A stretch of DNA of 64,000 nt, taken from NCBI GenBank assembly GCA_000092065.1, contig CP000589.1. One strand, 5' to 3'. Positions 6,068 through 28,477 of this stretch are shown piece after piece. The notes under the pieces were generated by a model. The model saw only the letters and a program-made list of their open reading frames with translations. It searched no databases and was not told the origin of the DNA. A program made the translations under genes and the position numbers. The stretch is from Ostreococcus lucimarinus (lineage: Eukaryota). Numbering within the stretch: the first letter of the stretch is position 1; every line of letters starts with the position of its first letter.

Positions 6068-7255
6068 CTAATAGCCAGCCAAGTCCATCAAATTAATTTC
6101 GCTTTGGCAGTGACGCATCTGCTTCGTGCGTCTTAAGCCACTGGGGAGAGGTAAGGTCTCTGGGATCGTGGGTGGATGCAGCGCCGGCGCGCCCGAGTCG
6201 CGAAGAATCTCGTATCGCATCGACTGAACATCCAACTTATCGTCATGCGACGCGTCAGAGTTCGACAAACGATCATCTGAGATGCGCCGTTTAGAGTTTT
6301 GTTGATGTAGCTGCTGATCGTCGAGCGTTGTGTGCTTCATCGGTGCGAAAGATAGGGGCTTTGCGTTGTCCTCATCCTCAACCAACGCCGACAAGTCTGG
6401 ACAGCTTTGAAATGACTTTAGCGCTGAAGTCTTCTCATCCGGATTAGCCTTAACGAAACGACCCTTCACGCGAACGCGCGCGTCTGCGAGCGTTTTACGG
6501 CATTCATAGCGCACCACTTTCTTCAACCCCATCAATCGACGCTCGCGCTTGGCGCGATATCTGTCGAGCTGCGCTTGGCGCTCCTTGCTCACCACGCGTC
6601 GAGGGATGCCGAAGAGATCGCTCGACATCGGCATCATTATGGGTGGAAAAGCCCCGGGTGGATAGGAACCTACCGTCTCTGCGGGCCCACGCTGCGCCGC
6701 GGGCAGTCCCAATCCAAGAGGCGACGGTCGCGGAGTGAAATTATCTCTCGCGCTCTTCGAGACGTACGCCTTGGCGGCGGCTTGATTCGGGCTCACCGCT
6801 TGAATCTGATCCGCCACCGCCTCCAGAGCGGCGGAAATAGACGCCGCATCGCCATCGAATAAAAGCGCCGACTCTGTTTCGGGCATCTCCAGCAAAGAAG
6901 CCAACGGATCGTCGTCCAAATCGAAAATCATCGTGTCGCTATTACTCGACATTCGCGGCGCCCTTGGACTCGTATCCTCTTCTCCGTTCTCACCTAAATT
7001 CAAAAACACGCCCACATCCCACGCACTGATCGTCGCGTCCATGCTCGACGTCGAATCGTGCGTCGTCGTCTTCGCATCGTCCCTCTTAAACAAACTGAAA
7101 CTCTTCTCCCTCAAACTCTCGCTCGTCCCGCGTCCTCGTCCGTCCTCGTCCTCGCGCCTCGCGCTCGCCGTCGCGCTCGCCGCCGCTTTCCAATCCCCGC
7201 ACTCCTTCGCCTCACTCAATCCCGCCTCGAGCGTTCGTTTATACCACTCATCCAC
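6068..7255 (-). CDS. CCT-motif protein (CONSTANS/TOC1-type CCT domain; no B-box or receiver domain seen)
   Basis: RERQAQLDRYRAKRERRLMGLKKVVRYECRKTLADARVRVKGRFVK matches the CCT consensus (R..x.LRYxEKRkxRxFxKkIRYxxRKxxAxxRpRxKGRFvK). Confidence 0.7.
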   Translation of the reverse strand: MDEWYKRTLEAGLSEAKECGDWKAAASATASARREDEDGRGRGTSESLREKSFSLFKRDDAKTTTHDSTSSMDATISAWDVGVFLNLGENGEEDTSPRAPRMSSNSDTMIFDLDDDPLASLLEMPETESALLFDGDAASISAALEAVADQIQAVSPNQAAAKAYVSKSARDNFTPRPSPLGLGLPAAQRGPAETVGSYPPGAFPPIMMPMSSDLFGIPRRVVSKERQAQLDRYRAKRERRLMGLKKVVRYECRKTLADARVRVKGRFVKANPDEKTSALKSFQSCPDLSALVEDEDNAKPLSFAPMKHTTLDDQQLHQQNSKRRISDDRLSNSDASHDDKLDVQSMRYEILRDSGAPALHPPTIPETLPLPSGLRRTKQMRHCQSEINLMDLAGY

Positions 7256-10772: not shown

Positions 10773-12305
10773 CTAAGGACCCGGACGCGCGAGTAACACC
10801 CCGACCAAGGCTTCGTGGTAATCGACGCTCGCGGGGGAGGACTTTAAGCGCTCGGGGAGGGCGTCGGCGAGCGCGCGCTGCGCGGCGACGACGGAGACGC
10901 CGACGGGCGGCGGGAGCGGCGGACCACGGCGAGGGGAATCGCACAGACCCAGACGCTGGCGCAGGGCGAGATTTTCAGCCTGCGCGCGCGCGTGCGCGTC
11001 CACCATGTCGGAGGGGTGCCGCGAAGGGAACACGCAGTCGGCGTGGTCGTTTTCAAATTTGACGTTGACGCACACGGCGCGAGGGATTTGAGCGTCGCGA
11101 ACGCACACCAAGCCGTCGCTGGGCTCGCCGTAGCGATTGTCGATGTAGCGCGCGGATGGAAACAAACCGGCCGCGGCGGATTTCGTCGCCGTGGCGAAGG
11201 ACACCACGGGATAGTGACTCGGAATGGGGTGCGCGGCGAGAAAAGCGCGACGTTCGCGATACGTCAAGTCGCGAATAGGCTCGAGCAATCGAGCGCCGTC
11301 GCCTTTGGGCGCGCTCACCAAAATTTCAAGAAGCGAAGCGACGGGGTCCGCCAACGGCGCGCTGAGTAAATCGGTCGCGATGGGTGACCCTCCGAACGGG
11401 CTTTGCACCGCGATTAAACCGCGCACGAGCTTTCGTAGTCTGTCGTCGTGCAACGCGAGCGCCGCGCCTCCGTCGACGCCGCCCTTCGAGTGTCCAATGA
11501 TCACGACACGTTTCCCAGTCTCGGCGTGAATATCTTCAATCTCGCGCGCCAGTGCCTTTGCGTTCGTTACGACCGCGCCTTCGCCATCGACCAAACGCGA
11601 GATGCGACACTGCGCTCCGCGGTCTCGGAACGCCTGCTCAACGTCGGCGTAGTATCGCGGATAGTACGATCCAAACAAACCTGGCACGAGCAGATAAAAG
11701 TACTCCGCACCCGTCGCGAGCACGCTCCCAGGACGCGCTAAAACTCCTTCCAAAGCTTCCTCGAACGCCGATTCGCCGTCGATCGTCGTTTCCGCCGCCT
11801 CGTCGTCCAACCATCCGACGTCGCCTCGACTCGCCGCCGTGCTCGCGAGCGCGTTCGACATCTGCCGCATCAAATCCGCCGGCACCTCCGTCCAAGACGC
11901 TCGCGCGTCGACGAACGCTCTCGCTGCCTCGCGCGCCGCGCGTAGTCTCGCGACGCTGTCGCCCGCGGCGGCGTCGAGCCACTCCGCCGCCGCCGCCGCC
12001 GCCGGCAAGTCGCGCGCGCGTCGCAGCGCCGCGAGCGCCTCGCCCAGCGCCTCCGCGTCGACGAACGCGCCGCTGTCGACGAATGGAAACCGCGACCTCG
12101 CCGGTGGCGCCGCGACGTCCGTAGCTTCCGTCGCGTCCGTCGCGTCGTCGTTTCCGTCGTCATCGTTCTCGAGCGTGTCTTCGCCAAGTTTCGACGACGA
12201 CGACGTCGCGACGTCGCGTCGCGCGGCCGCGCGCGACGAACGAGCGCGTTGCGGTACGTTCGCTCGGACTGGTGCGAGGCGCGCGCGCGCGAGGGCGAGG
12301 CGCAT
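10773..12305 (-). CDS. alpha/beta-hydrolase-fold lipase-like protein (GHSKGG nucleophile elbow) with R/A-rich N-terminal presequence
   Basis: LVPGLFGSYYPRYYADVEQAF...KRVVIIGHSKGGVDGG shows a lipase-type GxSxG. The track ORF reaches 12728, but that part overlaps the upstream gene and is S/P-rich. The ATG at 12305 (MRLALARARL...) is the first plausible start. Confidence 0.65.
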   Translation of the reverse strand: MRLALARARLAPVRANVPQRARSSRAAARRDVATSSSSKLGEDTLENDDDGNDDATDATEATDVAAPPARSRFPFVDSGAFVDAEALGEALAALRRARDLPAAAAAAEWLDAAAGDSVARLRAAREAARAFVDARASWTEVPADLMRQMSNALASTAASRGDVGWLDDEAAETTIDGESAFEEALEGVLARPGSVLATGAEYFYLLVPGLFGSYYPRYYADVEQAFRDRGAQCRISRLVDGEGAVVTNAKALAREIEDIHAETGKRVVIIGHSKGGVDGGAALALHDDRLRKLVRGLIAVQSPFGGSPIATDLLSAPLADPVASLLEILVSAPKGDGARLLEPIRDLTYRERRAFLAAHPIPSHYPVVSFATATKSAAAGLFPSARYIDNRYGEPSDGLVCVRDAQIPRAVCVNVKFENDHADCVFPSRHPSDMVDAHARAQAENLALRQRLGLCDSPRRGPPLPPPVGVSVVAAQRALADALPERLKSSPASVDYHEALVGVLLARPGP

Positions 12306-12351: not shown

Positions 12352-14688
12352 TTACACGCGAAAGGACTTTGCGATCGCCTCGATCGCCTCGATGGCGCTA
12401 GATTCCACCCGGTCGTTGTGTGCGATCGATTGCTTGAGGGCACGGATGATATCGCGCGCGGGCGCGACGGCGGGCGGCGCGGCGCGGAGCCAGTCGGCGG
12501 GGAGGACGTCGACGACGGCTTGAAGCGACGCCGCGCACGCGGCTGGATCCACGAGCTGTAAACGCACGTAAGGGATGACTTGGGCGCCGATGATGCCGTC
12601 GGCGACGATGCGCTGAAGCGCGGCGCGGTCGACAATATCTTCAAACGCGAATGCGCTTCGAACGAGATCCAAAGCGAGTCGGAATTGAGCTTGGGCGTGA
12701 CGTGCGGCGTTTGGCGCGCACGTGGCAACTATTGGCGAATACGTCGGTACCGCGCATTCCTCTGCGCATCGCTTCAGTCGACGTTGTAACGCGATGACAA
12801 TCTCCTTTGCCTCTTCGTTCGCGCTCGGTTCGACGTAGACGAAGATATCCTTGAGCGTAGACGCCAGAGCGCGCGATTGCGCCGGATCTCGCGGTTCCCA
12901 CCACTCTTCCACAGCCTCCGATGCGATCGGTAAAACGACGTGCTGCACCATGTTGGGCAACAAATTCGCATCTTCGTCACCTTCGTCGATTTTTCCATCA
13001 ATCACGCCGTAGTCGAACAGTTGTCCGTACCAAGACATTGCGTCCAACGCGCCTGGCGCAGTTTTCCCAGCGAGCGGAAACAACGGAGACCATCCAATCA
13101 GTTCCAATCGCACGAAAGGAGCGAAGAGATTAGGGACGGAGACCGACATATACGTGCTCTTATACGAACCAAGGTGCGTGCGCTTCCATTCCTCGGCGTG
13201 CCTTTTCACCGCGCTGAGCGTCGAGAACTCTTCTGACGCGTCCTTGAGCATCGAGCTCGCCGCGTCTCTGGCGTCCGCCCAATCTTTGTGAAGCAATCCG
13301 ACCTCGCGTTCGTCCTCAGCGACCGCCATTGCCGTGTCGCTCGACTCACGTCGCTTTGATCGCGCCTTGACTTTTTCCCGCATCGCGATGTTCAAGTCTC
13401 TGCCCATGTCGTCCAACTTTTCACCGTGCAAACCTTTGGCGTTGAACACGGCGTCCCGAATAGCCGTCACCGCAGTCGCCTTCGCCTCGGTCTGCGAACC
13501 GCTGCGTTGTAACACTGCGTTCACCGCTTCCGCCGCGGCTTCCGCTTCGATCGCGCTCTCCTCGAACTCGGCATTCATCGCCTGCGTCAGCGCTTGCGCT
13601 CGTTCCGCGTGGAATTTTCTATAATGCTCCTCGAGCTCGTCTAAGATGAGCTTCTTTTCGTGCAGCATGGCGCACGCGTCTCTAAAGTAATCGCGCAACT
13701 TTTGAGTGAACACGTATCGCTCACTCGCATCCTTGAGCTCCTTCTCGTAAAACGCCAAAGCCTCTTGACTCTTCACCGCGTTTTCGTCGGCGCGAGTCGC
13801 CTCCCTTCTCGCCGTCTCGCTCGACGACTCCGCTGCCTCCAACGCGCGTTTCAAACTTTCGAACGCTTCCATACCACCTCGTTCGATCGAAACCCCAGTA
13901 CCCGCCCGCTCCATCGTCGCTCGCGCGTCCCGAGCGCTTCGACGCATCTCCGGCTCGTCCCTGAACACGCGTTGCAACTGCGCGCGCTCAAACTCATCGT
14001 CGTCGCTCCCCGGCAAGATATCACCCTCCACGTACCCCGCATACCTATCTCGCGCACCACCGTCTCGCACGCTCTTAAACGCCACGCGCTCTCGGCGTCC
14101 GCCGCTAGAATCTAAGTCGACGTAATCCGCCGCCGTCGATTTCGCCCTCGCCGCCTCCCGCTTCGCCTTCGCCTCCGCGATCGTCTTCGCGTCCGGAATC
14201 ACCGTTCCCACCCCCCCCGCCGTCTCGCGCGCCGGCGGCGGCGGCGTCCACGCCTCCGCGCTCGTCCCTCCGAAGACGTCGCTCGCCGACCGTCCCGCCG
14301 TCCCGCTCGCCGCCGCGCCCCCCCTGTCCTCCGGTCGATCTCGCAGCGTCGCCTGCTCGCGCCGCAGCGCCGCCAGCGCCGCCGCGTCGTACGTTCGCGT
14401 CTCCCCCGTCGTCGTCGTCGTCGTCCCTCGTCGCGCGTCCATCGCCGCGACGCCTCGTCGTCTCGTCGCCTTCGCCGCGCGCGCGTCGCCGCCGCCGCCG
14501 CCGTCGTCCTCGTCGTCGTCGCGCGGCGCGTCGTCCTCGAACGACAGCAGCGCGCGCGCGCTCGACGCTTTCTTTCGCGCGCGCGGCGTCGTCGTCGCCG
14601 GCGTCGCGTCGTCGCCGTCGCGCGTCGCGTCGCCGTCGCGCGTTCGATTCGCCGACGACGATTTCGTCGCGCGACGACGGAACGCCAT
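12352..14688 (-). CDS. GCFC-domain protein (PAXBP1 / GC-rich-sequence DNA-binding-factor-like; probable splicing/intron-lariat factor)
   Basis: N-terminus MAFRRRATKS...ALLSFEDD...DDDEDD resembles PAXBP1 (MFRKARR...SLLSFQDEEEE). The C-terminal half has GCFC-like motifs (YMSVSVPNLFAPFVRLELIGWSPLF; WWEPRDP). Start moved from 14844 to 14688. Confidence 0.6.
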   Translation of the reverse strand: MAFRRRATKSSSANRTRDGDATRDGDDATPATTTPRARKKASSARALLSFEDDAPRDDDEDDGGGGGDARAAKATRRRGVAAMDARRGTTTTTTGETRTYDAAALAALRREQATLRDRPEDRGGAAASGTAGRSASDVFGGTSAEAWTPPPPARETAGGVGTVIPDAKTIAEAKAKREAARAKSTAADYVDLDSSGGRRERVAFKSVRDGGARDRYAGYVEGDILPGSDDDEFERAQLQRVFRDEPEMRRSARDARATMERAGTGVSIERGGMEAFESLKRALEAAESSSETARREATRADENAVKSQEALAFYEKELKDASERYVFTQKLRDYFRDACAMLHEKKLILDELEEHYRKFHAERAQALTQAMNAEFEESAIEAEAAAEAVNAVLQRSGSQTEAKATAVTAIRDAVFNAKGLHGEKLDDMGRDLNIAMREKVKARSKRRESSDTAMAVAEDEREVGLLHKDWADARDAASSMLKDASEEFSTLSAVKRHAEEWKRTHLGSYKSTYMSVSVPNLFAPFVRLELIGWSPLFPLAGKTAPGALDAMSWYGQLFDYGVIDGKIDEGDEDANLLPNMVQHVVLPIASEAVEEWWEPRDPAQSRALASTLKDIFVYVEPSANEEAKEIVIALQRRLKRCAEECAVPTYSPIVATCAPNAARHAQAQFRLALDLVRSAFAFEDIVDRAALQRIVADGIIGAQVIPYVRLQLVDPAACAASLQAVVDVLPADWLRAAPPAVAPARDIIRALKQSIAHNDRVESSAIEAIEAIAKSFRV

Positions 14689-20824: not shown

Positions 20825-20893
20825 GGCGAGTGTCGCTGTGAGGGGTGGCGGCGAATTTGTTTCTTACACTGTACAGTACACTGTTTCATCGCT

Positions 20894-23800
20894 TCATTCG
20901 TTGTCGCGGGGATCCACGAGCTCGTACGATGCGTCCGCCTCTTCGTTGAGCATGCGATCGATTTCATCGAGACGCTCGGCGAGCGTTTCGTCTCCATCTT
21001 CGTCGCCCATCGGCGCCGACGGTTTTCCATCGAAATCGCATCCAGTATACGAGTCATTCAACCGGCAGTAATCGATGAGACTCCTCCAGTGCACGTCGTG
21101 GCTCAAGATGTGAGGATTACCCACGATGATCAAGAGTGACATTGCGCGCGTCACGGCAACGTTGAATCGCTTTGGATTCGCCATGAAACCGAGGCGATGG
21201 CGAGCGTCAAACTTCAAATGGGCAGTGTCGCTGCGAACGGTTGATAAGATGACTACGCTAAACTCTTGTCCTTGCAAGAGTTCAGTCGAACCCACGGTGA
21301 CTCCAGAAATCTTTTTCGCTTCGAGGTGTTTCATCATCTTCAGTTTTTGCTTGTGATACGGTGTACAGATGGCGATGTCTTTGGCTGTCAAACCCGTGTT
21401 CTTTCGGTCCAAAATTTTCGTGATCCACGAGCTCACTCGAAGTATCTCGTCGGGATTAAACCAAGATGGCGAATTCGCCTCTCGGAGTTCTTCGCCCATG
21501 ACACCGTCGAAAACGACTGGAAACGATGGATTCGGAAGCTCTTCCCATCCCTTGAAAATGTTCGTCCGCATGGGATCGGCGCAACATTCCAGCCTGTCAA
21601 AGTAGAATAACTTCGACGGAATTTCGATGATGCACGCGTGCGAGCGATAATTTTTCGTGAGCATGCACACTTTACTTGGCTCAAACGTACCGTCCGCGCG
21701 AACGCTATACGGAGTCTCAGTGTACGGCGCCGGAGGTAAGCACAGACGCTCGAGCATACTGACTTCCAAAGCTCTCGATTCCTTGGCTTGCACCAGCGGT
21801 CCCAGCTGTCGGGCGTCGCCGGCCAGAACCAGACGCCCTTTTTTTGGCTCTAATACGCTGACGATGGCGGTGAGAAGTTCGGGCTCCGATGCATGACCTG
21901 CTTCATCGATGATGACATTTTCAAAGCGACGCTCCGGCGATAAAATGAACACTTTCCTCGCTTTCCCTTTTCCGTACTCACCAGAGTCTCGAAACGTCCG
22001 CGTGAGTCTCTGCGCCGTAATCGGTGTCATGGCAACCACTCGAGCTCGCATGAATCTCTCAACAGTCGGCGGACAAAAAACGTTTGCAGTACTATCGTAG
22101 TTTGAGACGTCTAAGAGCTTCGATGGCACCTGATCGGGCATTCGAGAGAAATTGTAGACGCGATACGCTTCGCTCTTTGGAACGCCACCGTGCTCGATGA
22201 CGCGTGAGATGAACAAGTCACACGCCGCGTTACTTGGAGCCATCAACAAGACTCTTCCGCCAGTTTTATACATCTGCGCCGCTATCTCCACGACAGTAGT
22301 CGTCTTACCAGTACCAGGAGGTCCAAAAATGATGAATGGAGATTGTGAACGCGGCGCCATCGCGTTCGCAACTGCGAGCTTTTGTTCCTCGTTTAAGCGC
22401 CGATTCAACATTTTCAGATCTGATCTGCCAGTCGCGTCTACGTCGAGATCGTCGCCAAACTTTGGAAGCAAAAATGACTCATACGACGAAGATTTCAGAG
22501 AGTCTTTAATCGCGCCATGCATGAGTTCTATCGCGGTGCGCGACACTTCAAACGACACGTCAGCCTTGACCCCATTGATGTATGCTTTCGTGAAACCAGG
22601 ATGGAATCGGCACACGATGTGCTCAGCTTCCACGAATTCAACTTTCCCTCGAAATGAGCTTTTAGCCGTGGACAAATCGACGATGATCGAGTCGCCACGA
22701 AGCACCGATGGACGAGCTTCAGCGAGGCCTGGGACGAAAAGTCTATACATGGCTTTGGAATTGGTCTGCGAGAGCGCGACGTTGTGCATATCGTACAATC
22801 TCACGTTTTTGGTCGCCTGCACTTCTTCCATCATGAGCAGCTGACGAAAGAACTGAGCGTAATTCGTCTTCGAGAGATACTTTTGTCCGGTTTCTAGCAT
22901 TTCAGTAACAGAAGATGCCTGTGGTTCCTCGCCGTCGAGCGCTTTCCGAATGTCAGCCATGGGAACGGAAAGCGGAGCCGGCCAGAAGAACTTTGTCTTC
23001 GCGTTTAAAACCTCTTTCGAAGGGCCTGGATCGACGACTTTCTTCGACCCCTTCACCAAACTCGAATTTTTCTGCTGTTTCGGATACGCGAACGCGCTCG
23101 TCGGCCCGAGCGCGATTCGTTCCGCGCTCTCCTGCGCGCTTTCCCTCGCTCGAAGACGCAGCACGAGCACCGAGAGCGTAATCTCGCCCGACTCGACGTC
23201 GTCTTGATACGTTCGATACGAGAAGACGAGTGAAACGTCGTGCACCCCCGCCTTCAAATCCTTCGCCCAATCATCTCTCAAACACACGGCGTTCTCCACC
23301 TCCAGCATTCCTCCCTCCTTCACCTCTCCCTCGAACGTTTTCAGCGTCGGCTCCTCCAACACGCGATCGCCCAAATCGTCTCGGGCGAGCCCGAACGCGC
23401 CGAACAAAACCGTCACCTTCTCCCCCGCATCGATCGGCAATTTCAGCACCACCGACGCGCTTTTCAAATCCGACGCCGACGAGATCTTTCGCGGCACCAG
23501 CGTCTCCTTCGGCGTCGCCTCCGCGCCCGCCTCCGCGCTTCGTCGAAACGTCGCCGCTCGATGTTTCGCGCCGCGCTCGTGCTCCTCTCGTCCGCACGCC
23601 GGCACGTCCACGTCGCACACGTCGCATCGATACGCCCCTAACAGCGCGTCTCGCGCGTCTCTCGCGTTCGAGCGGTGCGCCCTCGTGCGCTCGTGCTCGA
23701 ACCGCGCGCGCGCGGGCATCGACGCATCGCACGCGACGCATCGCCAGGTCAACGAGTCGCGCGTCCGCAGCTTGGCGCGATGCCGCGCGCCGCGCTCGTG

Positions 23801-23938
23801 CGTCGGCATCAAGCGCGCGGGAACGTCGCAATCGCACACTTCGCATCGCGTCGGCGCGCGCGCGCCGTCGACGGGCATGACGCGCGCGCGCGGCGCGATG
23901 TGACGAGTCTCGGAGATCGACGCGACGAGGGGTGCCAT
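20894..23938 (-). CDS. SF1 (UPF1-like) RNA helicase of the MOV10/SDE3/Armitage type, preceded by three C2H2 U1/matrin-type zinc fingers
   Basis: Motifs I GPPGTGKT, II DEAGHASEPE, III VLAGDARQLGP, IV KNYRSHACII, V STVRS...GFMANPKRFNVAVTRA. The N-terminal CEVCDCDVPARLMPTHERGARHRAKL, WRCVACDASMPARARFEHERTRAHR and YRCDVCDVDVPACGREEHERGAKHRA are C-x2-C-x12-H-x5-H fingers. Start moved from 24067 to 23938 (MAPLVAS...). Confidence 0.85.
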   Translation of the reverse strand: MAPLVASISETRHIAPRARVMPVDGARAPTRCEVCDCDVPARLMPTHERGARHRAKLRTRDSLTWRCVACDASMPARARFEHERTRAHRSNARDARDALLGAYRCDVCDVDVPACGREEHERGAKHRAATFRRSAEAGAEATPKETLVPRKISSASDLKSASVVLKLPIDAGEKVTVLFGAFGLARDDLGDRVLEEPTLKTFEGEVKEGGMLEVENAVCLRDDWAKDLKAGVHDVSLVFSYRTYQDDVESGEITLSVLVLRLRARESAQESAERIALGPTSAFAYPKQQKNSSLVKGSKKVVDPGPSKEVLNAKTKFFWPAPLSVPMADIRKALDGEEPQASSVTEMLETGQKYLSKTNYAQFFRQLLMMEEVQATKNVRLYDMHNVALSQTNSKAMYRLFVPGLAEARPSVLRGDSIIVDLSTAKSSFRGKVEFVEAEHIVCRFHPGFTKAYINGVKADVSFEVSRTAIELMHGAIKDSLKSSSYESFLLPKFGDDLDVDATGRSDLKMLNRRLNEEQKLAVANAMAPRSQSPFIIFGPPGTGKTTTVVEIAAQMYKTGGRVLLMAPSNAACDLFISRVIEHGGVPKSEAYRVYNFSRMPDQVPSKLLDVSNYDSTANVFCPPTVERFMRARVVAMTPITAQRLTRTFRDSGEYGKGKARKVFILSPERRFENVIIDEAGHASEPELLTAIVSVLEPKKGRLVLAGDARQLGPLVQAKESRALEVSMLERLCLPPAPYTETPYSVRADGTFEPSKVCMLTKNYRSHACIIEIPSKLFYFDRLECCADPMRTNIFKGWEELPNPSFPVVFDGVMGEELREANSPSWFNPDEILRVSSWITKILDRKNTGLTAKDIAICTPYHKQKLKMMKHLEAKKISGVTVGSTELLQGQEFSVVILSTVRSDTAHLKFDARHRLGFMANPKRFNVAVTRAMSLLIIVGNPHILSHDVHWRSLIDYCRLNDSYTGCDFDGKPSAPMGDEDGDETLAERLDEIDRMLNEEADASYELVDPRDNE

Positions 23939-24030
23939 GTTTTTTTGACGCGACGGGACTGGACGCGTCGACGCGACGAGGGGTGCCGTGGTTTTTCGAC
24001 GACGCGACGGGACTGGACGCGCGCGTCGAG
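23921..24030. repeat. tandem duplication (~52-bp unit x2) in the helicase 5' region
   Basis: GACGCGACGAGGGGTGCC(A/G)TG(T/G)TTTTT(T/C)GACG...CGACGGGACTGGACGCG occurs twice in tandem. Confidence 0.7.
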
Positions 24031-24040
24031 ACGAGCGCGG

Positions 24041-24177
24041 GAGAGAAGAGAAAATTGCGTCGATCACACGAAGGAAGCGCGCGCGCGCCGGGTGCTCGAG
24101 ACGCGAGCGAAGCGACGCGCGCTCAACCGAGGGCGGTTAAACCGCTGGTGCCGAGCGTCTCGAGCTTTTCGAACGCT
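24041..24177. repeat. direct-repeat copy 1: duplicate of the last 6 codons + stop + 3' flank of the ascorbate peroxidase gene (partner at 27355..27462)
   Basis: GAGAAGAG..TGCGTCGATCACACGAAGGAAGCGCGCGCGC...GACGCGCGCTCAACCGAGGGCGGTTAAACCGCTGGTGCCGAGCGTCTCGAGCTTTTCGAACGC is shared by both loci. Copy 1 carries a 27-bp internal insertion. Confidence 0.8.
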
Positions 24178-24249
24178 TTTCGAACGATGGTAGATTTCCC
24201 GGTACGAGCCAGACCCTTGACGTAAAACACGACGTCCCAACCGTCATGA

Positions 24250-26904
24250 TTAAGAAAACGCGAGTAGATTTTCAACGGTCACACGGCGCGTCTTGACAAT
24301 CGCCAACAACTCAACTGAAGCGATGGACACCAAAAGGAAGAAAAACGCGGCGTTACCACCCGCTTGAGACAAAACTTGAAGCGGAGGTAGCTTGTACTTC
24401 CGTGTACACGAGTATGGGAAATTTTCTTTAGTCCAGGCACACATTCGATCGCGACCGATTTCATCAAAAATTGTGCGGAACGTGTTCAAGACGAGCGCGT
24501 CATTTCGATCCATCACTGCCGTATAGCTCACCGCGATGCCGCCCGCTTTATATTCATCTGTTGTGAGTATCAAGGAGCCATGTACTGTTCCGCTGATGTG
24601 GTTGGTAAAATTGGTTTGCTGATTTTGAAAAAAGGTGTCGAAAGTAGCGTTCACCGTGCCCATCATATTTGCGTAGTACTTGTATGAAGGACCAAATCTG
24701 CCCCACGGACGGAGGTAAGCCGATGGCTGCCGCCCATAATCCGCGTCACTATAGCTCAATATCCCTTGGCCAGGTCCAAATGAAGGCGTGGACTGCTCAA
24801 GCTCGCTTAAACCCGAGTTCGTCAGCGATGGTTCTTCGATTTTGGCTAAACATTCATCGTATGTCCAATTCTTGCCATACCAGATAGCGTCCTTCAATGG
24901 ACGACACGTGAAACCTTCCTTTTCGAGGACATTTTCTACCACCGTTTCCGTAAACTCCTGAGTCGCGTAAAACTGCAGGAGCAACGCAAATACAATCAAA
25001 GAGGCTGCCCCGAGAACAAAGCACACTAAAAGTGTGCGTATAGGTGACATGACGAGGTCCAGATCGGTCACTCGGAACCACTTGTCCTCCATCGGTAAAC
25101 GTGCCTTCCAGCCCAGAGGATTGCTCGCGGGGAGGCGCTTGATTATGATGGCCACTATCCACATGAGGCTTGCGGCGATGAACTGAGCGTTACCATATGA
25201 GAGAGAGAGGCGCGTGAGTGTATCGGGCGGGCCTGACTTTTTGCACTCGTACGGCGAGTTTTCCTTCGTGAAAAGGCACACCTCGTCGCCTGCGACATCC
25301 ATCATGGCTTTCCACACCTCGACTGCATCCGCCTTGAGTGCGTCTGTCCATGAGTTGGAAGGTGCATTGATTAGAATACGAGTCGACTGGGGTTTTCCTC
25401 CAACGAGAAACGAAGCCGGATCTTCCCAGTGATCGAGATCGGTCGTCGCGCTGTATTGAGTCAGCGTAGCGTTTGGGCGTTCTTTGCCCCAAAACGCTTG
25501 CGATGAAACGCCTTCTTTGGATGCATTAAACGGAACATATTTCGCTTTGATTGGGACCGGATTCGGCATGTTCAATGGATCGCCCTGCCAGGATTCGAAA
25601 TTAATATTATCCACCGTGATGTCCTGTAAAGCAGCCTTGCAGTCGTCGAACGTATATCGCACACCGTAACCGAGGTTGTCTGTCGTCAACGGCGTGCAGT
25701 TGTATCCAGGCATTGCCCAAGAACCTGTGATTTGAATATCGGTGATGTACTGCGAAGTCGACGAAAAGTACTGGTAAAACCATGCAAACGTTCCTACACC
25801 GACGGCACAGATGGTAAGCGAAAAGAAACCAACGACCAGCGTGTTCGACACGAATTCGAGCGGCTCCTCGTCGTAAAATTCGGGAGGAAAAGATAACTTT
25901 TCAATCCAGGTTTTCTCATTGGTAGCCTTTGGAGCTTTGCGGAAAAAGCCTATGAAGGTGGGTAAAGTAGCAAGGAACACGGTGATCACGAGCCCAGCAT
26001 TATTATTCGACAGACCAATCATTTCTAAAGCAGTCATTCTTTTCGACTTCAAACACTTGTACGGCAAGTTGTGCTTGGTGAATTCGCACACGTCGCCTCC
26101 ATTGACGTATTCAATCGTCTTGCTGAACAACTGCAAGAAATGAGCCGCGCTGGTGTTAAAAGTCTCGCAATCGCCGACGATTCCATTGGTGCTGCCACCT
26201 CCGGAACGCCTGATTTGGCCCGCGTTGCACGTCGCGCCAGACGGGTTTGGGTACTGCCTGCAGTCGCCGTTGTTTACAACTTGATTGATGTATGTTTCAA
26301 TTTCTGGCGTACGTGATTCCGGAAGCTTTGGCCAAATACCTCGATGGGCTTGAACACTACCGAACGGATTGTAATACACCGAATTCTTCACCGAGCAGTT
26401 ATAGGGTATAGTGCCCCCGTTACTATAGTCAGTACGTGTCAGGTAACCTCCAGCGGCGATAGCCTCTGCATTGGCGATATCAAAGCCAATTGCACTCTCT
26501 GTCAATGGCACTATCTTCGTTAAACACTCTTCGTACGTATAGTTTAACCCGTAAAATTCATCCGGGCTCAACGGCGCGCAGTCGTAGCCAGCGATCGCCG
26601 TGGAGTCGCTGATGATCGTATCCGTCACCCAGCGCGCTTCGTCCGCGTAGTAAAACAACGACCCGATGAATGCCAAGGTAGCGAGCGTGTGCATCGTCAC
26701 CGCCCCGCCGTAGGCCATCCACACTGGTCCTTTGAATTCGAGATACCGCTCGCGCGCCCAATAAATTTCAGGTACTGGAAGTCTTCGTATGAATCGCTCG
26801 ACGGAGCCCCTCGCCTTGCGCGCGCGCTGCTTGATCGACGAGGGCGCCGGGGCCGATGCCGACGCGTGCGTCATGATGAACGACGGGCTTCCGCGCGCGG
26901 GCAA
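24250..26904 (-). CDS. novel six-TM membrane glycoprotein built from three tandem [juxtamembrane motif - TM - ~190-aa Cys-containing ectodomain - TM] modules; no recognisable family
   Basis: Uninterrupted 884-codon ORF. Three internal repeats each carry Y(D/N)C(A/T)PL...Y(T)(Y/F)(E/D)(E/D)C(L/K)..I near TM-a and C-x-(F/W)TKEN-x-PY-x-C before TM-b. Six hydrophobic helices. At least 10 NxS/T sequons lie in the predicted ectodomains. The 5' end is GC-rich and the body is ~50% GC. Confidence 0.7.
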   Translation of the reverse strand: MPARGSPSFIMTHASASAPAPSSIKQRARKARGSVERFIRRLPVPEIYWARERYLEFKGPVWMAYGGAVTMHTLATLAFIGSLFYYADEARWVTDTIISDSTAIAGYDCAPLSPDEFYGLNYTYEECLTKIVPLTESAIGFDIANAEAIAAGGYLTRTDYSNGGTIPYNCSVKNSVYYNPFGSVQAHRGIWPKLPESRTPEIETYINQVVNNGDCRQYPNPSGATCNAGQIRRSGGGSTNGIVGDCETFNTSAAHFLQLFSKTIEYVNGGDVCEFTKHNLPYKCLKSKRMTALEMIGLSNNNAGLVITVFLATLPTFIGFFRKAPKATNEKTWIEKLSFPPEFYDEEPLEFVSNTLVVGFFSLTICAVGVGTFAWFYQYFSSTSQYITDIQITGSWAMPGYNCTPLTTDNLGYGVRYTFDDCKAALQDITVDNINFESWQGDPLNMPNPVPIKAKYVPFNASKEGVSSQAFWGKERPNATLTQYSATTDLDHWEDPASFLVGGKPQSTRILINAPSNSWTDALKADAVEVWKAMMDVAGDEVCLFTKENSPYECKKSGPPDTLTRLSLSYGNAQFIAASLMWIVAIIIKRLPASNPLGWKARLPMEDKWFRVTDLDLVMSPIRTLLVCFVLGAASLIVFALLLQFYATQEFTETVVENVLEKEGFTCRPLKDAIWYGKNWTYDECLAKIEEPSLTNSGLSELEQSTPSFGPGQGILSYSDADYGRQPSAYLRPWGRFGPSYKYYANMMGTVNATFDTFFQNQQTNFTNHISGTVHGSLILTTDEYKAGGIAVSYTAVMDRNDALVLNTFRTIFDEIGRDRMCAWTKENFPYSCTRKYKLPPLQVLSQAGGNAAFFFLLVSIASVELLAIVKTRRVTVENLLAFS

Positions 26905-26949
26905 TTTTGCGATGACCGTGCTCTCCGATCTGACGTGTCGACGTAATTA

Positions 26950-27175
26950 CCCTAACGACTCCTCACTCGGTCCCCCCTAATTGAATGCGAATGGAGAGGA
27001 AGTGACTAACATATAATGTGGTTTTTAGAGGTATCATATCAGTATCGAGCCCTGGCTCAAGGGCACGCTGGACTGAGTTACCGTGCGCAATGATACATTA
27101 ATTGCATTACTAGGGATTTCGAAAATAATGTATGAGGGTAAAATAGTGAATTTAATTAACCTAGAGACGTCTTGT
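26950..27175. promoter_or_regulatory. AT-rich (~35% GC) island immediately upstream of the 884-aa membrane-protein gene; putative promoter
   Basis: Sharp compositional drop (…TAACATATAATGTGGTTTTTAGAGGTATCATATCAG…GAAAATAATGTATGAGGGTAAAATAGTGAATTTAATTAAC) in an otherwise ~70% GC intergenic context. Confidence 0.4.
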
Positions 27176-27354
27176 CGCGCCGGCGCGCGCCACTTCGCGC
27201 CGCGCGCGCGTCCGGGCGGCGCGGAGTCAACCGATGTTTCCGTGTATCGTGATATCCGACCGTTTAAGTTTGAATTCCACGCGTGGGTGTTGACGGAAGA
27301 CGACCGTTGGAGCTCGATGGGCACGTTAACTTTTGGGCCAGATTCTGTCGCGAC

Positions 27355-27462
27355 GGGAGAAGAGAAGAGTGCGTCGATCACACGAAGGAAGCGCGCGCGC
27401 GACGCGCGCTCAACCGAGGGCGGTTAAACCGCTGGTGCCGAGCGTCTCGAGCTTTTCGAACG
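27355..27462. repeat. direct-repeat copy 2 (native 3' end of the ascorbate peroxidase gene); partner of 24041..24177
   Basis: Same sequence as copy 1. Here it encodes ...AFEKLETLGTSGLTALG* of APX and its downstream flank. Confidence 0.8.
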
Positions 27463-28477
27463 CGGCGGCGAAGTCTTCGAAGAAAACCTTCTGACTCTTG
27501 GCGTAGACGTCGACGTACTTCTTGAAGTCGGCGTCTTCGATGAGCGCGATGTCGCTCGGAAGCATCATCAAGTTGCCGCTCGGGTCTTTGTATTGGAACT
27601 TTTTGGCGTCCGGATTCGGCTCCCACTTCAAGCCTTTGAGGAGGACGAAGTAGGAGTTGTTGAACAGCAACGGCGTCCCGCTCCACGGTCCGACGTAACC
27701 GGACGCGTCGGCGTGACAACGACCGAGGGCGTGGGCGCCGCTCAACGCGACGATTTCTCGATCGTCGAAACCCATGCGGTAGAAGACGTCGCGCAAGCCT
27801 TGCCTCGTCTTCGGTCCAGGGCCGTCGCCCTTGTCGGCGTCGGGCAAGCGCCCGTCGGGGGTGACCGCCTCGGGATCCATCTCGTCGACGCGACCGTACG
27901 AAAACTTCAACTTCGGCCCGCCCATCTCTTCGATCGCCACGACGCCGACGAACGCGATGAGATCGGCCCACGATACGTCCGGGTGCCGCTTCTTGATCGG
28001 CTCGAGCTTCGCGATCGCCTTATCCAGTCCCGCGTTCCCGCCGTGCGCGAGTTCCTCTTTAAACCGAATCGTCCCGCCGCCGCTCCCACCAGTCTTGCCC
28101 ATCCGGTCGTACGTCCCGGACGAGTGCCACGCGAGTCGCACGAGCGTCGGCCCGAAGTCCGCGTCGGCGCGCGTCAGCTCGACCGCGTCCCGTCGAACCG
28201 ACGCGAAGCGTTCCTCCGCCGTCGCCGCGCGCGCGGGCGCGACGTCGAACGCCGCGAAGAGCGCCGGCGCGAGCGCGATCGACGCGAGCGCGCGTCGTCG
28301 CGGCGTCGATGAATCGGATGGCGATTCGTCCGAAACGACGTTTCGGACGACCGTCGCGCGCGGACGCGGACGCGTCGCCGCGCGCGTCGCGCGAGCGCGC
28401 GTCGAAGCCGACCCGATCGCCGCGCCGAGCTTCGCGCGCGCCGTCGTCGTCGTCGTCGTCGTCGTCGTCGCGCGCAT
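27410..28477 (-). CDS. APX: ascorbate peroxidase (class I haem peroxidase) with Ser/Thr/Arg-rich organellar transit peptide
   Basis: LVRLAWHSSGTYD...GGSGGGTIRF..EL.HGGNAGL...PDVSWADLIAFVGVVAIEEMGGP...SGAHALGRCH...GPW. Start moved from 28672 to ATG 28477 (MRATTTTTTTTTARAK...). Confidence 0.85.
   Translation of the reverse strand: MRATTTTTTTTTARAKLGAAIGSASTRARATRAATRPRPRATVVRNVVSDESPSDSSTPRRRALASIALAPALFAAFDVAPARAATAEERFASVRRDAVELTRADADFGPTLVRLAWHSSGTYDRMGKTGGSGGGTIRFKEELAHGGNAGLDKAIAKLEPIKKRHPDVSWADLIAFVGVVAIEEMGGPKLKFSYGRVDEMDPEAVTPDGRLPDADKGDGPGPKTRQGLRDVFYRMGFDDREIVALSGAHALGRCHADASGYVGPWSGTPLLFNNSYFVLLKGLKWEPNPDAKKFQYKDPSGNLMMLPSDIALIEDADFKKYVDVYAKSQKVFFEDFAAAFEKLETLGTSGLTALG
28441..28470. 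repeat. (GTC)n microsatellite encoding the poly-Thr run in the APX transit peptide
   Basis: CGTCGTCGTCGTCGTCGTCGTCGTCG. Confidence 0.8.

Follow-up and report, generated by a model that had tools for sequence, protein, structure and literature searches.

A membrane-protein gene between two copies of the APX 3' end segregates as a presence/absence variant in Ostreococcus lucimarinus

Contig CP000589.1 of the reference strain Ostreococcus lucimarinus CCE9901 (assembly GCA_000092065.1) carries, in the 64,000-nucleotide stretch analysed here and referred to below as the window, three consecutive minus-strand genes that encode a class I haem peroxidase (APX), an 874-aa triple-repeat membrane protein and a MOV10-like helicase. 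The membrane-protein gene lies between two direct copies of the APX 3' end, and in wild populations the same locus occurs with and without it: the filled site is present in the reference and on at least 13 independent environmental contigs, and nine further independent contigs carry an empty site in which a single copy of the repeated stretch separates APX from the helicase gene. We consider it probable that the gene arrived as an insertion which still segregates, captured during break repair or by a replicative template switch that left a long target duplication of variable length, rather than by canonical transposition. An initial annotation of the window had proposed a segment insertion into the APX-helicase spacer with target duplication, or a repair-mediated duplication of the same geometry, and the coexistence of empty and filled alleles supports this proposal.

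The genomes of the Mamiellales are very compact, with intergenic spacers of approximately 200 bp, and an insertion risks damaging a terminator or a promoter. The locus described here shows, base by base, how a foreign gene can join a standard chromosome with its neighbours unharmed, namely through duplication of the landing site. The empty allele is still segregating at sea, intermediate alleles record the later trimming of the insert, and the remnant of a viral-type primase-helicase gene is a direct trace of the donor. Gene gain in the Mamiellales has usually been discussed only for the 'outlier' chromosomes (PMC13390643). Taken as a single case the locus is a well-documented structural polymorphism and not a new principle; its kind is known, and what is new is a variant with an unusually long duplication. 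Its significance would be greater should the recurrent geometry detailed below turn out to reflect a general way in which these algae gain genes.

The repeat pair

A repeat scan of the window recovered the two copies as an exact 65-nt direct repeat (24112-24176 = 27399-27463) and a 55-nt block of 91% identity (24043-24097 versus 27357-27411). Gapped BLAST aligns 24043-24176 with 27357-27463, with 105 of the 107 aligned bases identical, a single 27-nt gap and E = 1e-30. Two direct copies with a 27-nt indel are thus present where the initial annotation had placed them, one forming the last 17 codons and 3' flank of APX and the other lying upstream of the helicase gene:

27354..27463, minus strand: copy B, comprising the 17 codons that end APX, together with the stop and 56 nt of 3' flank
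24038..24174, minus strand: copy A, a dead duplicate of the last 17 APX codons and the stop, followed by spacer that runs into the helicase promoter
24088..24114 (approximate), minus strand: the 27-nt stretch, present in copy A and in the single repeat copy of all empty sites, absent from copy B

Copy B is the APX 3' end in use and encodes AFEKLETLGTSGLTALG followed by the stop codon. Copy A is situated 76 nt 3' of the membrane-gene stop and 100-236 nt 5' of the helicase ATG. Compared to the empty site, copy B carries the 27-nt deletion, which is bounded by short GCGC repeats, together with one substitution and a 1-nt deletion; all of these changes fall within the insert-proximal 75 nt and none within the distal 109 nt. 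Copy A is identical to the single copy of two empty alleles (L031 and L035) and differs by one single-nucleotide polymorphism (SNP) from that of the remaining empty alleles.

The initial annotation had argued against a chance match of low complexity, and the exact 65-nt run, the only such repeat in the 64 kb, rules one out. The self-comparison of the window that it had recommended shows the APX-end pair as the sole high-identity long-range repeat, and BLAST detected no third copy of the block in the window. The block is likewise no dispersed repeat, a possibility that the annotation had named as fatal to its own proposal: in every fetched locus it is confined to the APX locus, where it occurs once at empty sites and twice at filled ones.

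Empty and filled alleles in wild populations

The reference strain was compared with metagenome contigs of O. lucimarinus-like populations, which were fetched via the helicase N-terminus, the neighbouring DUF1499 protein and variants of the membrane protein, and which yielded 52 loci. In thirteen filled contigs both junctions match the reference base for base. The empty site consists of APX, one repeat copy and the helicase gene, with a spacer of 184 nt, and was found on L018, L025 (= L028), L026, L029, L031, L033, L034, L035 and L049. These nine contigs are 10-121 kb long, are approximately 99% identical to the window and originate from at least eight samples and three assemblers. Each contains exactly one copy of the duplicated stretch, which is the state expected before an insertion by break repair or template switching, and the search for an empty site in relatives that the initial annotation had advised thus returned the arrangement it foresaw, with the APX 3' end followed by a single repeat copy and the helicase promoter.

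The empty contigs are not assembly collapses, because several of them derive from assemblies with k = 141, a value that exceeds the 65-nt identical run, and because they carry a linked helicase allele and a distinct SNP state. The linked allele is a 9-nt indel in the N-terminal part of the helicase gene (window 23600-23700, codons about 90-100): the form NARDARDALLGAY is present in all empty contigs and in none of the environmental filled contigs, which have NARDPLLGAY. As a full separator of filled and empty sites the indel holds for the environmental contigs, the reference strain being the exception and a recombinant in this respect. The SNP state is GCACTTTTC, shared by six empty contigs and found in neither filled copy, since copy A reads GCAATTTTC and copy B GCACTCTTC. 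The flank haplotypes of empty and filled alleles are interleaved, with 0-20 differences per 3.3 kb, and the polymorphism is therefore real and old enough for recombination to have acted. In L031 and L035 the repeat matches copy A exactly, and these alleles may be revertants that arose by recombination between the two copies.

In an outgroup Ostreococcus no membrane gene resides beside APX. On its contigs (L036 and L037; APX 73% identical) an FTCD_N gene directly follows APX, an ABC transporter gene lies upstream instead, and the entire block of O. lucimarinus that comprises the MOV10-helicase, DUF1499 and 378-aa genes is absent. Because the helicase block is missing from the nearest syntenic species, the outgroup is uninformative on the APX-helicase junction; the other APX homologues searched for polarity are not syntenic. 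What points to insertion as the direction of change is the truncated APX fragment, which is necessarily derived, along with the SNP state of the six alleles and the haplotype L018. Since gene content differs in the outgroup, the region downstream of APX is a hotspot of gene-content change between species.

Content of the insert

The insert of the window measures 3,179 bp (24175-27353). It had been described as exactly one gene plus its upstream region, and the single gene stands; the description omitted a 60-nt fragment of a second gene, a 76-nt filler and an 11-nt templated duplication:

27278..27353, minus strand: filler of 76 nt between copy B and a segment designated S
26875..27277, minus strand: upstream (promoter) region of about 400 nt that travels with the gene
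24186..24245, minus strand: primase-helicase remnant of 60 nt or 20 codons (DGWDVVFYVKGLARTGKSTI), beginning 5 nt past the membrane-gene stop
24175..24185, minus strand: templated insertion of 11 nt (GTTCGAAAAGC), which exactly repeats in tandem the 11 nt at the start of copy A

Segment S ends on the left at position 27277, and the same limit recurs at an alternative insertion site in L018 and L023. The remnant contains the Walker A motif GLARTGKST. Another contig (L007, 98.8% identical) departs from the window exactly at 24186 and continues into a P-loop open reading frame (ORF), and a full-length relative of 299 aa (P0063) matches the PHROG DNA-primase families (best E = 3e-12) as well as Pfam DUF5906 (E = 5e-5, below the gathering score). 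The combination of an SF3-type P-loop with these family matches identifies the remnant as the SF3-helicase part of a D5/P4-type primase-helicase. Enzymes of this type are a hallmark of viruses and mobile elements, and the remnant therefore identifies an island of viral or transposon origin as the source from which the segment was copied. In a related genome, a 579-kb contig (L016) harbours a frameshifted full-length primase-helicase gene near its end, without the membrane gene. Rather than a free-standing element, the insert is part of a larger island of mobile or viral type; more precisely, it is an arbitrary piece of a locus where the membrane gene had come to abut a truncated primase-helicase gene. 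It has the attributes of such a piece, namely ends in unrelated sequence, filler and little microhomology.

The hallmarks of transposable elements were sought in the insert and were absent. Its edges carry no inverted or direct repeats longer than 9 nt, which is the chance level, and no poly(A); inverted matches between the first and the last 300 nt do not exceed 8 nt, and no pair of arms lies at the edges. The only complete ORF has no transposase match in Pfam, and the 3.2 kb encode no integrase or recombinase. Within the window only one copy occurs, whereas a transposon would be expected in many copies that share the same ends. LINE-type (long interspersed nuclear element) retroposition is not indicated either, as there is no 3' A-tract at the insert edge, about 400 nt of upstream sequence were carried along and the duplication is long, where retroposition leaves 7-20 bp. 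Transposons with terminal inverted repeats produce a duplication of fixed length between 2 and 10 bp; the duplications here amount to 107-137 nt in the window and 152 and 181 nt in the allele L008, and to 82, 75 and 37 nt at other loci. Given an insert devoid of transposon features, the 'target duplication' of the initial annotation has to be understood as a product of repair or replication and not as the footprint of a transposase.

Nested alleles

Alleles that carry the membrane gene differ in how much of the primase-helicase gene they retain, and the lengths of the remnant are as follows:

Window: 60 nt
L023: about 110 nt
L018: 206 nt
L008: 243 nt
L012: at least 712 nt

L008 is a filled allele on a 53-kb contig, and here a longer APX copy, beginning at TACGCCAAGAG (codons YAKSQKVFFEDFAAAFEKL...), directly adjoins the remnant. 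In this allele copy A has 181 nt, copy B 152 nt and the insert 3,346 bp, and the right junction shows a microhomology of 0-1 nt. Of the duplicated 181 nt, 95 are the end of APX and 86 belong to the 184-nt spacer. Removal of 218 bp from L008 and addition of the 11-nt templated duplicate give the reference allele. Judging from this comparison, the original duplication was probably at least 181 nt long and the 137-nt copy A of the reference would be a later, trimmed form.

Two alleles have long remnants. L012 (790-7372) contains two tandem copies of the whole 3.3-kb unit, in which the middle repeat is a hybrid with the left part of copy A and the right part of copy B, and 712 nt or more of the primase-helicase ORF come after the second unit; the allele may be the product of an unequal crossover, or an assembly loop or chimeric scaffold. 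In L017 (2460-3298) the first 10 nt of the APX coding sequence are joined to the middle of the primase-helicase ORF (ATGCGCGCGA|AATAAAAGC), and this contig may represent a deletion allele devoid of APX and the membrane gene, or a chimera. If L012 and L017 are real, the right junction of L008 may itself be a secondary deletion, the original duplication could exceed 181 nt and the insert could have been larger.

Further variation was encountered among the filled alleles. In L022 (1080-1130; VMHT01110763.1) the last 30 nt of copy B, at the left junction, are exchanged for 35 unrelated nucleotides, and in L032 (3965-6584) a premature stop interrupts the membrane gene at codon 706. Comparison of the membrane gene at its two insertion sites within the species gives 20 non-synonymous and 4 synonymous differences, numbers that neutral evolution could produce.

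The same gene at other positions

In L018, L023 and L024 the APX-helicase site is empty and the segment 27277..24186 (98.3-98.7% identical) is located directly after the helicase stop, where it is preceded by 122 nt of other sequence; in L024 the upstream region of the membrane gene differs. The large island to which this segment belongs starts at a short palindrome:

20868..20877, minus strand: palindrome ACTGTACAGT just past the helicase stop, the start point of the island in L018, L023 and L024

The island extends over at least 8.4 kb from its left edge and includes unnamed ORFs, a weak GIY-YIG match (E = 0.008, below the Pfam threshold) and pieces in common with L016. Its left edge is covered by L018 (11273-11400) and L023 (2710-11147) and its right side probably by L041 (1-9950). 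In L041 the opening 28-45 nt or so of the island (…CAGTAATCTACCCCCGCCATTGCGCGGGATGA) are found again, inverted, just upstream of DUF1499, and behind this inverted terminus at least 10 kb follow that hold a giant PAN/TSP1-repeat gene. Such an arrangement, if the two ends are linked as we infer, suggests one large element with inverted termini between the helicase gene and DUF1499. Longer copies of the terminus are found at L016:4510, L016:18521 and L023:7060. All other alleles have an uninterrupted helicase-DUF1499 junction in common.

A third position is occupied in a sister lineage (L051 and L052), where the membrane gene lies between an RsfS gene and a minus-strand ORF that adjoins the gene for a mitochondrial ATP synthase. 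Its nucleotide identity to the gene in the window is 93.4% (pS = 0.14, pN/pS = 0.28). The homology of L051 to the window is confined to 26920..24249, which amounts to the coding region and a further 46 nt; it does not extend past the stop codon, so that no helicase remnant is present.

Recurrent flanking duplications

The membrane gene of L051, and likewise that of L052, is flanked by an 82-nt direct repeat (2134-2215 and 5708-5788 of L051; 82% identity, E = 1e-18), the second copy of which includes the last five codons and the stop of the neighbouring minus-strand ORF. In another species (L001-L006) a homologue with 38% identity lies between a Myb gene and an unnamed gene and is flanked by a 37-nt repeat with an exact core of 22 nt (6534-6570 and 9463-9499 of L001, and the same in L002-L006). 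The geometry also surrounds an unrelated gene: in L016 an aspartyl-protease gene is bordered by a 75-nt repeat of 89% identity (11138-11212 and 12866-12937), one copy of which stands right after the stop of the upstream gene and the other of which forms the last 15 codons and the stop of the protease.

Among 33 windows inspected for background, 11 gave GC-rich, low-identity BLAST matches. Because this background is high in GC-rich DNA the E-value was set aside in favour of an exact-match scan, which covered 210 kb for direct repeats not of low complexity with at least 20 nt of exact identity and a spacing of 1.5-6 kb. Such repeats proved rare: four were recovered, three of them flanking-repeat cases and one the island terminus. 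The L051 repeat contains no exact run of 18 nt or more and was detected by BLAST only. At the other loci the genes are flanked by duplications of unrelated host sequence, which do not form a shared target of the attachment-site (att) type.

That this geometry surrounds the membrane gene at other loci, and an unrelated gene as well, suggests a general way of gaining genes. A bolder version, which we put forward only tentatively and to which we give clearly less than even credence, is that a single recurrent and hitherto undescribed process moves gene-sized segments in Ostreococcus and inserts each at the 3' end of a resident gene, with duplication of 40-180 nt of the target. The membrane gene, possibly encoding a cell-surface protein and evolving almost neutrally within the species, would then be a frequent passenger between virus- or transposon-derived variable islands and core chromosomes, and its presence or absence would be part of the host-virus dynamics. 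If this were the case, each newcomer would land between two working copies of the terminator/promoter spacer.

Proposed origin and competing explanations

Long and variable duplications of unrelated host sequences, arbitrary ends, filler, scars at the junctions and the lack of element features together argue for capture by host break repair or replication. The following sequence of events, reconstructed from the alleles, would account for the locus. The reference strain would descend from an ancestor in which a piece of DNA of about 3.3 kb was captured in the 184-nt APX-helicase spacer, 86 nt past the APX stop. This fragment, presumably copied from a virus- or transposon-derived variable island, would have brought the membrane gene with the region upstream of it and the beginning of an adjacent D5-type primase-helicase pseudogene, which was truncated before the capture. 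Two routes can be envisaged: either the ends of a double-strand break were staggered by about 180 nt, both were filled in and the fragment was joined between them, or replication switched to the donor as its template and, on returning, resumed about 180 nt behind the place it had left. Both would leave the 181-nt stretch on each side of the insert. As the duplicated stretch holds the APX C-terminus and 3' flank as well as the helicase promoter, both neighbours stayed intact, and this may be the reason why the insertion survived in so compact a genome. The newcomer in turn would have gained a copy of the APX 3' flank behind it, and copy A may now act as the terminator of the membrane gene. Subsequently copy B would have undergone the 27-nt deletion through microhomology and two point changes at its junction end, and a 218-bp deletion sealed by the 11-nt templated insertion would have left 60 nt of the remnant and 137 nt of copy A. 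Recombination between the copies would by now be possible, with loss or tandem duplication of the insert as the outcome.

Several points weigh against this reconstruction or limit its detail. The long-remnant alleles L012 and L017, if real at this site, would make a secondary deletion a possible source of the right junction of L008; L012 in particular may reflect crossing over or misassembly. L031 and L035 are what recombination between the two copies is expected to produce. The polarity has no outgroup proof, the closest outgroup being without the helicase gene. Neither the window nor the 52 loci contain a source for the 76-nt filler, and the donor locus of the insert was not found among the fetched loci. 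At 37 nt the repeat of L001 is short. Finally, the scars at this locus fit both staggered-break fill-in and template switching.

A different origin for the same geometry is Campbell-type integration, in which a circle with the APX 3' end and spacer enters the empty site by a single crossover and may pop out by the reverse reaction. The repeat of L031 and L035 is what a pop-out would leave, and the exact A-left/B-right hybrid in the middle of L012 is what unequal recombination gives. Ostreococcus tauri is reported to carry out efficient homologous recombination, and crossovers of this type could spread an existing insert between strains. As an account of how the insert arose we nevertheless regard it as unlikely. 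It leaves the origin unexplained, as the circle must first have gained an APX end; the 76-nt filler and the junction-clustered scars of copy B are not expected from a clean crossover; and the other loci are flanked by different host duplications, so that a new patch of homology would be needed each time.

The filled state could alternatively be ancestral, with all empty alleles being deletions through recombination between the copies. The identical run of 65 nt (109 nt in L008-type alleles) is a good substrate for deletion, filled alleles make up the majority of the fetched contigs, and the divergence of the segment between its two sites (0.9% in coding sequence) is similar to that of the flanks. 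We consider this explanation distinctly improbable, however, because no crossover between the sampled A and B copies could yield the GCACTTTTC state of the six empty contigs, because a truncated APX fragment upstream of the helicase gene must derive from a single-copy state, and because the diverged haplotype L018 is empty at this site and carries the gene elsewhere.

Canonical transposition or retroposition would make the insert a 3.2-kb non-autonomous element and the repeat a target-site duplication generated by an enzyme supplied in trans. The gene does occupy at least three different sites in close relatives, the edges of the island at the alternative site share the 28-45-nt terminus in inverted orientation, and a D5-type primase-helicase remnant and the weak GIY-YIG match are found nearby. 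Even so, for this insert we judge transposition highly improbable and largely refuted: its edges are devoid of terminal inverted or direct repeats and of poly(A), the duplications (37, 75, 82 and 181 nt) greatly exceed the fixed duplication of a transposase in both length and variability, the inner flanks are specific to each site, as the limited match with L051 illustrates, and the right end falls at an arbitrary point of a pseudogene that varies by allele. An assembly artefact is of negligible probability, for although short-read assemblers can loop or collapse at 65-nt repeats and L012 and L017 could be chimeras, the reference and the independent filled contigs are identical at both junctions and the empty contigs include k = 141 assemblies with linked private variants.

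Relation to known repair and insertion systems

Capture by break repair or template switching has parallels in several systems. 'Patch-mediated' duplications at staggered breaks have reportedly been described by Vaughn & Bennetzen in 2014 and by Schiml et al. in 2016. As in such duplications, the locus shows a direct duplication between offset breaks that abuts the joint and is of variable length, with little or no microhomology, with filler and without an enzyme encoded by an element. Staggered double-strand breaks that are filled in and joined give rise to tandem duplications (Schimmel et al. 2021, PMC8355091). Unlike in these studies, a gene-bearing fragment of 3.3 kb was captured here, the duplication, of at least 181 nt, lies towards the upper limit of the lengths they describe, the host is a haploid picoeukaryote and the mechanism is deduced from scars only.

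Template switching by fork stalling and template switching or microhomology-mediated break-induced replication (FoSTeS/MMBIR) yields insertions flanked by duplications, as reportedly described by Hastings et al. in 2009 and Carvalho et al. in 2013. The resemblance lies in the two junctions, the return behind the point of departure, the cluster of small mutations near one breakpoint and the 0-1 nt of microhomology, and in one haplotype a possible donor is present in cis 3 kb away. In contrast to FoSTeS/MMBIR events there are no inverted or triplicated segments, and the 76-nt filler is left unexplained.

End joining by polymerase theta with templated insertions was reportedly the subject of Schimmel et al. 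in 2019. The 218-bp deletion sealed by 11 nt identical to the adjacent 11 nt conforms to this pattern, and the likeness would apply to the secondary deletion and not necessarily to the primary insertion. Templated insertions are a hallmark of polymerase-theta end joining (PMC7368036).

Two classes of mobile elements invite comparison. Bacterial integrative islands that use att sites in tRNA or protein genes are likewise bordered by direct repeats of a gene 3' end, one copy of which completes the target gene; unlike those islands, the insert encodes no integrase, its repeat is host sequence duplicated at insertion, and the independent events used different targets. Class II transposons share with it a target duplication around the insertion and an empty site in relatives, but here the duplication exceeds theirs 10- to 60-fold and varies in length, and terminal inverted repeats and a transposase are lacking.

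Genes at the locus

The three genes are annotated as follows:

28477..27410, minus strand: APX, class I haem peroxidase (APX/CcP-like), PF00141, E = 2.6e-44, profile positions 1-237 of 237
26874..24250, minus strand: 874-aa triple-repeat membrane protein (ABO98038.1 / XP_001419745.1), the cargo gene, no Pfam family
23938..20894, minus strand: MOV10-like SF1 helicase of 1014 aa, assigned by Pfam

The full-length match to PF00141 places APX among the class I haem peroxidases, and the ascorbate and cytochrome c peroxidase types both fit the label APX/CcP-like. Its reading frame is intact despite the duplication of the 3' end, and the helicase gene, downstream of the insert, keeps the entire 184-nt upstream spacer. 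The membrane protein consists of three units, each composed of a transmembrane segment, an ectodomain with four cysteines and a second transmembrane segment, in agreement with the triple repeat of the initial annotation. Neither it nor 10 of its relatives matched a Pfam family; 105 representative relatives, mostly unnamed, were found among 1.8 billion proteins. An AlphaFold model of one repeat unit reached a pLDDT of only 65, and a search of the PDB gave no match. Scans of IMG/VR viral sequences found no relatives of the cargo or of the helicase remnant. A low-confidence model of repeat unit 3 (window 24253-25089) returned a single strong match in a Foldseek search of BFVD, the 413-aa E5ERE8 (E = 4e-6, probability 1.0, TM 0.33), which, judging by its accession range, may be a prasinovirus protein.

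Two small repeats lie at the starts of the neighbouring genes. At the helicase start (window 23917-24001) there is a 51-bp tandem pair (34 nt at 91% identity) with ATG in one copy and ACG in the other. At the APX N-terminus (28430-28475) a poly-threonine tract encoded by an ACG/GTC repeat varies in length between strains, giving an APX of 352-355 aa.

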